A stretch of 63,973 bases of DNA, filler included, from Actinomycetota bacterium (GTDB lineage: Bacteria; Actinomycetota; Actinomycetes; JAKEEW01): the NCBI GenBank assembly GCA_046725875.1. It is 5 parts of 5 records of this genome, joined end to end, with 100 filler letters (N's around TTAATTAATTAA, not from the genome) between each part and the next. Parts side by side here need not be neighbours in the genome. Positions count along the whole stretch, not along the records: positions 8,662 to 29,039 come from JBKOZJ010000137.1; 4 more parts are not named here. One strand, given 5' to 3'. Positions 20,031 to 29,523 of the stretch are shown here, piece by piece. The notes under the pieces are model-generated. The model was not told the DNA's origin. It did no database searches and saw only the letters and a list, made by a program, of their open reading frames with translations. The position numbers and the translations under genes are program-made. Every line of letters starts with the position of its first letter. Position 1 is the stretch's first letter.

Positions 20031-20313
20031 GACTGCGCAGCCTGCCCAAGGCTCGGCTCGAATACCAACCGAATAATCACCCTAGCCCCGGTCTTTCAGT
20101 GGGCCCGAAGGCGGCATCGTTGATCTTGTTGTGATCGTGGGGCGGGTGATGACGCCGGCCGTGTCCGTCGGGCAGGGTGGTGAGGCCCTCGGCGGTTCGC
20201 CTGCTGTGGCTGCCGAGGCGATCGGCACAGAACGGCCGGGCTCCTCGCTCCACAGGCTGTTGGCAGTCTCGGGACGGACGCGATGGAGGTCGGTGACGGT
20301 AGAGGAGAGATCA

Positions 20314-21141
20314 GTGAGAGTGGCGACCTGGAACGTGAACTCGGTCGTGGCCCGCGTCACCCGCCTTAACGAGTGGCTCGACCTGGCGAAGCCGGATGTC
20401 CTATGTCTGCAGGAGACGAAGTCCCCGGATGACATATTTCCCGCCAGCGGCGCCATCGAGCGTGGCTATGAGGTCGCCGCACACGGTTCGGGGCGATGGA
20501 ACGGCGTGGCGATCCTGTCTCGCATCGGGCTGGAGCATGTTATGCGCGGGTTCGATGGCCAACCTGGTTACGTCGAGACCGCCAAGCTGGATGACCTGAT
20601 GCTGGTTGATCTGCCGTCGCCTCCGATCGTCGAGCCGAGGGCGATGGCCGCCACCTGCGGGCCGCTTCGCGTCTGGTCTGTGTACGTGCCCAACGGGCGG
20701 ACCGTCGGGAGCGCGCATTACGCGTACAAGCTGGACTGGCTTTCCGCATTGCGAGACGCCGTGGCAGGAGAGGTGGCGGCCGGCGGCCCGTTCATCATGG
20801 CCGGGGACTTCAATATCGCACCAACTGACGCCGACGTGTGGGATCCCGCCGCCTTCGCCAGTGCGACCCACGTAACCGAGCCCGAGCGCGAGCGGCTAGC
20901 CGAACTTCGTAACCTTGGCCTCAAGGATGTCGTACCGCGCGCGCTGAAGTACGGCACCCCGTACACGTACTGGGATTACCGAGCCGGGATGTTCCACAAC
21001 AATCAAGGAATGCGGATCGACCTTGTGTACGCGAACGGCGTCGCGGCGTCGGCTGTGACCGACGCGTACGTGGATCGCGATGCACGGAAGGGAAAGGCCC
21101 CGTCCGACCACGCGCCAGTGGTTGTCGACCTAGACTTCTAG
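20314..21141 (+). CDS. xth: Exodeoxyribonuclease III
   Basis: ATWNVNS, LCLQETK, YVPNG, GDFN, RIDL, SDHAP. Confidence 0.95.
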   Translation: MRVATWNVNSVVARVTRLNEWLDLAKPDVLCLQETKSPDDIFPASGAIERGYEVAAHGSGRWNGVAILSRIGLEHVMRGFDGQPGYVETAKLDDLMLVDLPSPPIVEPRAMAATCGPLRVWSVYVPNGRTVGSAHYAYKLDWLSALRDAVAGEVAAGGPFIMAGDFNIAPTDADVWDPAAFASATHVTEPERERLAELRNLGLKDVVPRALKYGTPYTYWDYRAGMFHNNQGMRIDLVYANGVAASAVTDAYVDRDARKGKAPSDHAPVVVDLDF

Positions 21142-21273: not shown

Positions 21274-21501
21274 TCAGCCCCGCTCGTCGTCGTGGTGGTG
21301 CGGGTGGCCGTGGTCGTTCGGACCCTCACGGGATCCGTCAGCCGGCTGTCAACAGCCCGGCTGCCCGTAGTTCCCACAGCAGCTCGATCGCGTGCGTACC
21401 TTCCGCCAGTTGTTGGCCAGCGCGAGACGGACCTTCGTGGGGAACGACGCGTCGTAGGCCGCAAAGTTGGTGAAGAACGGCCCACCAATCAACCGTGCCA
21501 T
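21274..21501 (-). CDS. Small Cys-rich protein (50 aa); candidate 75-aa selenoprotein by readthrough of UGA at 21349-21351
   Basis: RBS gaggag; MARLIGGPFFTNFAAYDASFPTKVRLALANNWRKVRTRSSCCGNYGQPGC-UGA-QPADGSREGPNDHGHPHHHDDERG*; SECIS-like hairpin follows the UGA. Confidence 0.6.
21319..21337 (-). promoter_or_regulatory. Putative bacterial SECIS element
   Basis: CGGAUCCC-GUGA-GGGUCCG starts after an 11-nt spacer from the UGA; it can fold with a bulged U; loop G and U fall at positions 23-24 counting U of UGA as 1. Confidence 0.5.
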
Positions 21502-21613
21502 GATGATCGTGCTCCTCATCCGTCCCGTAGGCGCCCGCAAAGGCACCCACCCTACGCTTCGCGCCGGTCCGGCCTTGGCAATCGCTTGGTTGGACCGGCC
21601 CTTCGGCCCTACC

Positions 21614-21815
21614 TGATCACGCCTCGATGAACTGCTAGTCGCGCTAGATCCGACCGTCCGGGGCGAGTACGAGAAACTCAAGGCCGCAGCCAGCTGGGTT
21701 GCCGCGCGTCGGCACCATATCCCAGCTGAACTTGACCACGTCTCCCAACCGCGCGACGTTGTCGCGTCGCCTGAACGTGAACTCCCCGGGCGCGACGAAC
21801 TCCTCATTCCTACCC
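21614..21815 (-). pseudogene. SnoaL-like protein C-terminal remnant
   Basis: EEFVAPGEFTFRRRDNVARLGDVVKFSWDMVP..GLEFLVLAPDGRI*RD*QFIEA*, with two internal TAG stops. Confidence 0.6.
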
Positions 21816-21873
21816 TCGGACCCCGCAAGCACCGTGCGGCTACACCAACCGGCACAGCGGACGAAGCAGCCCG

Positions 21874-22314
21874 CTATGACAGCTCCGCCCTGGTACCTCG
21901 AACCGTGATATGCGCGACCGCGGTGTTGTTGTCCTTGCGCGCCTCGTCGATCTGGGAGAAGGCATCGGCGATCACAGTGATCGTGTACGAACCTGGTCCG
22001 TCAGGCAGGTCCCACAGTGCGGTCACCTCGATTGCTTCGCCCGGCGGCACCTCGGGGGTGTGGACGACTCGCATTTCCTGGTCGACGGCAGCGCCTCGCA
22101 CCCAGAACCGTGTGGTCGTCTCGCCCGCGACAACAGCTCCCATGTTCTCGACGATGGCGATCACCTCGACCACATGCGGGACGAGGCCGACAGCCTCTTC
22201 CGCGGGGCGGTCGACGGCGTCCCGCGTCTTGATCAACCCCACAACGAGGTCCGGCTTCCCGGCCATGCCCACGGTCGTCTCCACGGCTTCCTGCGCCATC
22301 GATCGTAGAACCAT
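21874..22314 (-). CDS. CARDB (Ig-like) domain protein
   Basis: KPDLVV..VENMG..PGEAIEV..GSYTITVIADAFSQIDEARKDNN; real start may be the internal MAGKPDL. Confidence 0.75.
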   Translation of the reverse strand: MVLRSMAQEAVETTVGMAGKPDLVVGLIKTRDAVDRPAEEAVGLVPHVVEVIAIVENMGAVVAGETTTRFWVRGAAVDQEMRVVHTPEVPPGEAIEVTALWDLPDGPGSYTITVIADAFSQIDEARKDNNTAVAHITVRGTRAELS

Positions 22315-29139: not shown

Positions 29140-29523
29140 ATCGAACCCGGCGAGGACGGCACGAGCTACCAGGATCAGACCGGCGACTATGGCGGCAGCG
29201 ACGGTGAGCAGTCCCCGGATGCCGGGTCGTCGAGCGATCCGGCGGGCGACGATCCGACTGCTACACCGACCAGCGATCCGTCCAGTGCGCCGACCGGCGA
29301 CGATGGCCTATCGCCGACGCCCACGCCAGCCGGCTCCCCGACCGCTGCCGTCTCCCCACCACCAACGCCCCAGCCGACGGCCTCGGCAAGCATGTCAGCG
29401 GACGCCGTCGCGGCACCCGATCCACCTACTCCGGCCACCGACCCGGGCAGCGGGGGGTTAGCGCATCGACCTCAGTTGGGCGACGATGAAGCTAACTCAT
29501 CCCAGGAGGGAACCGAGCCCTAG
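29140..29523 (+). CDS. Pro/Ser/Thr/Asp-rich C-terminus of a 5'-truncated protein
   Basis: Open frame IEPGEDGTSYQDQTG..PTPTPAGSPT..GTEP*. Confidence 0.6.
   Translation: MEPGEDGTSYQDQTGDYGGSDGEQSPDAGSSSDPAGDDPTATPTSDPSSAPTGDDGLSPTPTPAGSPTAAVSPPPTPQPTASASMSADAVAAPDPPTPATDPGSGGLAHRPQLGDDEANSSQEGTEP

Follow-up and report, generated by a model that had tools for sequence, protein, structure and literature searches.

A small gene on the minus strand of the window (the whole stretch of 63,973 nucleotides analyzed here), at positions 21501–21274, very probably encodes a selenoprotein. Comparison with its relatives suggests that the 50-codon gene does not end at its TGA; most likely, this codon is read as selenocysteine (Sec, U), yielding a 75-residue protein rich in Cys/Sec and His. 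The original prediction of a 75-amino acid selenoprotein that annotation truncates at the UGA is thus supported: the genome possesses the Sec machinery, nearly all homologs have TGA and not TAA or TAG after their PGC motif, and both the hairpin and the coding character of the downstream frame are conserved.

The gene and its in-frame TGA

The gene is located on contig C137 (12616–12840) of genome G000, the source of the window and an assembly that is 89% complete in 197 contigs. By direct reading, it starts with an ATG at position 21501, and its 50-codon part translates to MARLIGGPFFTNFAAYDASFPTKVRLALANNWRKVRTRSSCCGNYGQPGC, followed by TGA (Table 1). The ribosome-binding site has a counterpart, GAGGAGG, at the equivalent place in the closest relative, L024 (genome G003, of a different genus in the same family). 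Past the TGA the frame stays open for 24 further codons, 20 of which end in G or C, and the four exceptions (GCT, GGA, CGT, and GGT) lie in or beside a hairpin; residues 63–70 (21292–21315) form the His-rich portion of this extension. The hairpin begins after an 11-nt spacer from the UGA, and its loop G (21329) and loop U (21328) are nucleotides 23 and 24, numbered from the U of UGA. A bulged-U form is the fold of lowest energy, and an alternative pairing has 7 bp (CGGAUCC/GGGUCCG, with one U·G pair) and the loop CGUGA. In all of these respects, namely the coordinates of the gene with its ribosome-binding site and CCGNYGQPGC terminus, the codons of the open extension, and the spacing, loop, and possible bulged-U fold of the hairpin, the original prediction was accurate.

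Table 1. Features of the small gene, in window coordinates.
Feature	Position	Strand	Basis or remark
Shine-Dalgarno-like GAGGAG	21512..21517 (written 21517-21512)	minus	10-nt spacer to ATG; read directly
First 50 codons, conserved core, MARLIGG...CCGNYGQPGC	21352..21501	minus	two predicted helices, then C41, C42, and C50
In-frame TGA, proposed selenocysteine codon U51	21349..21351	minus	codon conservation among homologous copies
SECIS-like hairpin CGGAUCCC-GUGA-GGGUCCG	21319..21337	minus	fold, alignment, covariation
24-codon extension QPADGSREGPNDHGHPHHHDDERG	21277..21348	minus	comparison with L024 and family-wide substitution pattern
Second TGA, proposed true stop	21274..21276	minus	direct reading

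Since the window has a G+C content of ~67%, neither the openness of the frame over 24 codons nor a short G+C-rich hairpin is remarkable by itself. The window hairpin alone folds no better than chance (z = -1.0; 31 of 200 shuffles of the 36-nt stretch fold as well), and the hairpin of the genome's own fdhA gene is likewise unremarkable in isolation (z = -0.87). As these single-sequence signals are weak, the case depends on comparison with relatives.

The small gene converges with an exonuclease-III-type gene (20131–21141, plus strand). Upstream is an ORF with a CARDB domain (21874–22314, minus strand), and further upstream are a GNAT acetyltransferase and a PLP-dependent decarboxylase. Window positions 29140–50558 belong to a contig other than C137, namely C139, and long-range context across the window is not to be taken as synteny. 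A longer ORF (21349..21855, 168 amino acids), with the frame open for 118 codons upstream, was rejected: its upstream part is Arg/Ser-rich and unconserved, and relatives begin at MAR. Fusions were also rejected at other loci, where long stop-to-stop frames ending at PGC look like junk. A scan for promoters and terminators found none at the locus. The terminator-like stem proposed to follow the second stop did not withstand analysis, the scan being negative and the fold having z = -0.5, and an Rfam search gave only a chance match to Termite-leu (E 0.41).

The UGA position, hairpin, and downstream frame among relatives

A first scan of species-representative genomes gave 199 loci, of which the best 80 were kept, and a second scan, seeded with Cys forms, gave at least 521, of which the best 80 were kept. 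In the pooled and de-duplicated copies (n = 159), the codon after CCGxxGxPGC is TGA in 151, TGT in six, TGC in one, TAA in one, and TAG in none, in agreement with the expectation that homologs would have TGA or Cys at this site. By locus set, the first has TGA after PGC in 88 of its 89 copies and TAA in one (L043), and among 83 true copies of the second there are 76 TGA, six TGT, and one TGC; an additional motif in L133 was spurious, occurring in a different frame.

It is extremely improbable that the TGA is an ordinary stop, which would make the product a 50-residue peptide only and the conserved downstream sequence a stabilizer, terminator, or other structured element of the 3' untranslated region. 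Gene callers do end the protein at the PGC cysteine in ~136 of the best 150 cluster representatives, TGA is common as a stop in these genomes, and the window hairpin alone is not significant. However, the stops that end the extended frame are mixed (40 TGA, 39 TAG, and 9 TAA in 88 copies), and TGA thus accounts for 45% of true stops as against 151 of 159 codons at the site in question; stop-codon usage therefore cannot explain the first TGA. Also contrary to an ordinary stop are the Cys codons at the same site, after which the frame continues. Cys occurs there in six of the best 150 cluster representatives and as TGT or TGC in seven genomic loci, and these Cys-form homologs read on into similar, His/acidic tails (e.g., ...PGCCISSGSHASGDAHPHDHQH). 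Judged from these codons, the UGA behaves as sense rather than stop, is conserved, and has Cys as its counterpart.

The lone TAA copy, L043 (3106–3190), is from a metagenome-assembled genome titled Pelotomaculum. Its hairpin persists, as does an open frame with His codons, and selA was found in its genome; the TAA could have arisen by recent mutation or through a mistake in assembly. In two variants from genome G199 (L201 and L202), the protein finishes as ...CCGHHGEPGGCE or ...PGYCE and is then followed by TAA, such that G or Y replaces the Cys before the Sec position and Cys occupies the Sec position itself; selA was not found in G199. At L161, TAG directly follows the TGA, which would make Sec the final residue, and at L156 a single Arg codon follows the TGA. 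The ends of L161 and L156 resemble those of known selenoproteins terminating in Cys-Sec-COOH.

Some database proteins have other residues at the site, namely W (P0007, P0190, P0205, and P0232), G (P0002 and P0182), R (P0212), and Q (P0228). These would be expected if a near-cognate tRNA brought about readthrough without selenocysteine, a very improbable account that we consider together with a mixture of 50- and 75-residue products set by selenium supply. The tail is dispensable in many members, and in known systems Sec insertion competes with termination, both of which suit such an account. Against readthrough, TGG and GGA were absent from the site in all 159 distinct genomic copies. For this reason, and because the 90% cluster of P0007 includes 50-residue members, the W and G forms are suspected to be miscalled, probably through gene calling with genetic code 4 or 25. 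The selenoprotein reading is itself compatible with a mixture of products.

The hairpin was evaluated in an alignment of 85 distinct 68-nt stretches (MAFFT, unfitted), from which RNAalifold derived a consensus hairpin of 6 bp. Compensatory double changes occur at all six pairs (e.g., CG 27, AU 26, and GC 17). Paired cells amount to 74.3%, as compared with 58.0% in shuffles and 30–46% in slid controls, and the covariation score is 0.474, as compared with 0.184 in shuffles and 0.08–0.18 in slid controls; for neither measure did any of 500 shuffles reach the observed value. The covariation called for as a check on the hairpin is therefore present.

A simple stem finder, run on the 151 TGA copies and counting perfect stems that begin 12–19 nt past the U of this codon, picked up a hairpin in 137, and the loop contains GU in 120 of the 151. 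Frequencies were far lower downstream of the true stop (a hairpin in 21 and a GU loop in 2 of 100 cases) and of Cys codons (0 of 7 for both), as well as in shuffled sequence (12.7% and 1.7%). This distribution, with no hairpin after Cys codons and few after true stops, is at odds with an ordinary stop, as is the lack of a T-run terminator. The loop G is at nucleotide 23 in 81 copies and at nucleotide 26, one codon on, in 25. Of the SECIS-like hairpin as predicted, the covarying stem and GU loop stood up, while the bulged U did not: the nearest relative has C in its place, and the stem is fully paired in most relatives. Where just one or two codons follow the TGA, the hairpin is kept and lies past the real stop, so that constraint at the level of RNA can be separated from that at the level of protein. 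The hairpin thus has the marks of an RNA element under selection.

The sequence of L024 runs ...CCGNPGQPGC-TGA-QPAEGPREGPDDHPHPHHHD-TAA, with its stop falling four codons before that of the window. Across 20 aligned codons, its extension and that of the window differ by six synonymous and four conservative changes. In the family as a whole, differences between similar pairs past the hairpin (beyond codon 12) number 37, 34, and 82 at codon positions 1, 2, and 3, as compared with 1788, 1376, and 2822 in the upstream coding sequence. His makes up 40% of residues beyond codon 12 family-wide; His codons number 293 in frame, and the two alternative frames have 14 and 22. Both the third-position bias and the in-frame His codons speak against an ordinary stop. 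From the L024 comparison and the family-wide codon-position bias, the frame downstream of the UGA behaves as coding sequence, and the conservation of downstream coding proposed as a check is borne out. The predicted His-rich tail behaves as conserved coding sequence, but as a His-rich element it extends to only about half of the family (at least three His in 45 of 88 copies). Tail length is highly variable, from 0 to 50 codons, and several members stop 0–2 residues after U.

Selenocysteine machinery in carrier genomes

A search of genome G000 for selA, selB, selC, and selD, which had been recommended as a check, found all four. On contig C62, at 77412–80990 (~4 kb), are clustered selD (383 bits), tRNA-Sec (78.8 bits; anticodon tca by ARAGORN), selA (425 bits), and selB (258 bits). 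The fdhA gene of this genome has one in-frame UGA followed, after 12 nt, by GUUCCC-GGUCU-GGGAAC, a geometry like that of the small gene. This match in hairpin geometry is another point against readthrough without selenocysteine. Together, fdhA with its in-frame TGA, selD (minus strand), tRNA-Sec, selA, and selB lie within ~9 kb (G000:C62:72010-80990; L008, L009, L014, L116, and L117) as a compact selenium-utilization locus.

Among TGA-form genomes, selA was found in 48 of 50 (curated cut-off exceeded in 44) and in 28 of 29, and among Cys-form genomes in 2 of 7 and, in the class sample, 0 of 3. The summary figure is 78 of 81 TGA-form genomes versus 2 of 10 Cys-form genomes, counts that are descriptive only, related genomes not being independent. 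By these counts, the TGA form tracks the Sec machinery, and the Cys forms occur mostly without selA, which again disfavors readthrough. Two TGA-form genomes negative for selA have other parts of the machinery (tRNA-Sec and selD in G061; selB and a TGA-containing selD in G099); in the TGA-form genome G113, selA was not found. The selD gene of G099 (G099:C104:34940-35869) has one in-frame TGA, corresponding to the selenoprotein form of SelD. The selA gene of G104 (C7:85516-86697; the genome of L075) is broken up among several frames, and the match contains two TGA codons; this may reflect frameshifts from long-read errors or decay.

A feature-independent sample of 151 genomes was drawn evenly from the class of L046 (Dehalococcoidia-type). 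The family was found in 37 and selA in 96 of these; because selA is so common there, co-occurrence is weakly discriminating. Among the 37 carriers, 31 have selA, and in these the form was scored by the count of TGA inside the match rather than codon by codon. The six carriers lacking selA comprise three of Cys type (G157 with TGT, G243 with TGC, and G199 with the PGGCE variant) and three with TGA, of which G163 and G217 have tRNA-Sec while G198 has neither selA nor tRNA-Sec. Of 61 genomes in another class sample, drawn around the genome of the window, 2 carry the family and 20 have selA above the cut-off.

Sec machinery was not found in G003 or G198, as an ordinary stop would allow. In G003 (95% complete, 250 contigs), selA was not found and the best selD match is below the cut-off. 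A match to RF01852 in this genome was rejected as tRNA-Sec, ARAGORN calling it tRNA-Ser, and the best match to the selB model, a 405-amino acid frame beside a 699-amino acid GTPase frame, appears to be tuf next to fusA. L024 of G003 nonetheless keeps the TGA, hairpin, and frame. An assembly gap would explain the missing Sec genes, or they could have been genuinely lost; because the machinery of G000 sits in one 4-kb cluster, a single absent contig would suffice.

A probable new family, its resemblance to known selenoproteins, and its possible function

The database contains 140 homologs at E up to 0.01, almost all of which end precisely at ...PGC, and a profile search of 1.84 billion cluster representatives matched 498 at E up to 0.001. 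A match in G009 (E 1.2e-4) was spurious, as the CC...PGC motif is absent. The 159 distinct copies are chiefly from Actinomycetota and Chloroflexota. By record titles, carriers among the loci kept are Actinomycetota, Chloroflexota (Dehalococcoidia and Anaerolineae), Dormibacterota, some Desulfobacterota, and a few others.

Every database name encountered was "hypothetical protein." No Pfam model, including the CCG domain and SelP_N, exceeded its gathering score for the window protein or 84 members; sub-threshold matches among the 84 were to Shisa_N (5), ZrgA (3), SelP_N (1), and Tetraspanin (1). The window protein had no NCBIfam match at E up to 1, and a profile search of the PDB returned nothing at E up to 10. 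The strings CCGNYG, CCGNLG, GQPGCU, and related motifs did not occur in the literature searched, in which the family is undescribed; the family may nonetheless be listed, perhaps under another name, in the supplementary tables of BSepDB and deep-Sep. Table 1 of a 2026 review (PMC13188914) catalogs 119 families or subfamilies of prokaryotic selenoproteins together with their domain models. The criteria of Haft and Gwadz for new families are many examples, a universal TGA, similarity through U, and a SECIS hairpin (10.1101/2022.07.06.499078), and the sequence evidence assembled here is of that standard. We consider it highly probable that the gene is a genuine, formerly unannotated selenoprotein that represents a new family of a known kind.

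If confirmed, the gene would add a widespread family to the roughly 119 known in prokaryotes (PMC13188914). It would also fix a systematic annotation error, by which the protein has been cut to ~50 residues and called hypothetical wherever named. As described in the deep-Sep paper, search methods can depend on abundant Cys homologs (PMC12013277); families dominated by Sec can escape such methods. GOS_A, from the 2008 ocean survey, has two Sec and 155 Cys sequences (PMC2398784). This Sec:Cys ratio, on which alone the two are compared, is unlike that of the present family.

Nine residues are invariant in 84 sequences: N30, C41, C42, G43, G46, P48, G49, C50, and U51. An AlphaFold2 model, which is of low confidence (pLDDT 59.5), has helices at residues 7–15 and 20–37 and coil elsewhere. 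The product would accordingly consist of a short, basic, two-helix N-terminal part and an invariant Gly/Pro-rich turn. This turn would join two vicinal pairs, C41-C42 and C50-U51, with a tail rich in His and Asp coming next in this organism.

In E. coli fdhF, Sec insertion is SECIS-directed and involves a UGA and a hairpin with a bulged U and a loop G-U. By analogy, the UGA of the small gene would be decoded as selenocysteine. Its hairpin, which presents the apical-loop G-U 23–24 nt from the UGA, would recruit SelB-GTP with Sec-tRNA(Sec) to the ribosome, and decoding would be supplied by the selD, selC, selA, and selB of the genome, which already serve fdhA. The small gene is similar to E. coli fdhF and its own genome's fdhA in having an in-frame UGA, a hairpin 11–12 nt on with apical G-U at nucleotides 23–24, and selA, selB, selC, and selD present. 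It differs in that the product is a 75-residue peptide instead of a molybdoenzyme. In addition, the family does not conserve the fdhF bulged U, and the hairpin in some members lies wholly past the real stop.

Animal thioredoxin reductase has a C-terminal Gly-Cys-Sec-Gly arm and MerA a C-terminal Cys-Cys, both being large flavoenzymes. The present family likewise places adjacent Cys and Sec (or two Cys) on a flexible C-terminal stretch rich in Gly, which in some members ends 0–2 residues after U, but unlike those enzymes it is a stand-alone domain of ~50 residues with no flavin or NAD fold. His-rich stretches or tails are found in selenoprotein P and the metallochaperones HypB, UreE, and SlyD, which the family resembles in having Sec/Cys alongside a His-rich stretch. 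Weak matches of this kind among the 84 members (SelP_N, one at E 0.012; ZrgA, three; UreE, one) all fall below family thresholds and are explained by composition, and about half of the family lacks the tail.

Parallels also exist with CU-motif families, of which SaoC, SaoL, HgcA, MbdU, KCU-star, and the Csac_0668 family all have NCBIfam models (PMC13188914). SaoC (Cys-Cys-COOH), KCU-star/DUF466, SaoL, HgcA, and MbdU similarly have Cys-Sec at or near the C-terminus, and further shared features are database truncation at the UGA, the lack of a model before discovery, and suspected contact with heavy metals (PMC13188914; 10.1101/2022.07.06.499078). In contrast to these families, the present one lacks a signal peptide, shows neither a transporter nor an operon context that is conserved, carries an additional vicinal CC pair nine residues upstream, and has Sec forms that far outnumber Cys forms (151 to 7). 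None of the 84 members matched the models of SaoC (NF040734), KCU-star (NF033934), MbdU (NF045648), SaoL (NF040728), or HgcA (NF040863) at E up to 0.1, nor did any match the CC/Se motif family NF041239 at the same threshold. The model of the Csac_0668 family likewise hit none of them.

The best-supported guess as to function is a soft-metal site formed from the CC and CU pairs and aided in many members by the His/acidic tail. In such a site, one selenolate and three thiolates would coordinate a soft metal, and the His-rich tail would act as an auxiliary capture arm. That metal binding is the main function is a tentative proposal, which we hold at somewhat below even chances. Alternatively, a redox-active Cys-Sec selenenylsulfide on the flexible end may be the functional element, with C50-U51 cycling as a small redox shuttle. 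Both ideas derive from composition and from analogies to GCUG of thioredoxin reductase, CC of MerA, the tails of HypB and UreE, and selenoprotein P. The small size of the protein could make it a tractable model for a Cys2-Cys-Sec site.

It is conceivable, though unlikely, that the UGA also serves to gauge selenium. When selenium is present, the CC...CU protein with its metal-capturing tail would be made, and without it, the truncated CC...C peptide, in a near-obligate Sec family (151 TGA versus 7 Cys) that is common among aerobic Chloroflexota and Actinomycetota of soil and sea. Were this so, the family would link selenium status to the handling of a soft metal and would be a main reason, beside FdhA, for these lineages keeping the Sec machinery.

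The genomic surroundings were surveyed through a Pfam scan of 137 flanking ORFs at 70 loci (of 311 ORFs picked), in which no metal, redox, or transport partner recurred. Clustering of the flanking ORFs gave lineage-specific neighbors and no recurrent partner, the neighbors that do repeat being clade-local: MmgE/PrpD (9), luciferase-like (5), and zinc ADH (5). Tandem paralog pairs occur in several Dehalococcoidia, with the two copies ~330 nt apart (L046, L054, L055, L056, L059, and L076) or, at L057, ~870 nt apart. Each copy of the Dehalococcoidia tandem pairs has the TGA, the hairpin, and a His-rich tail.
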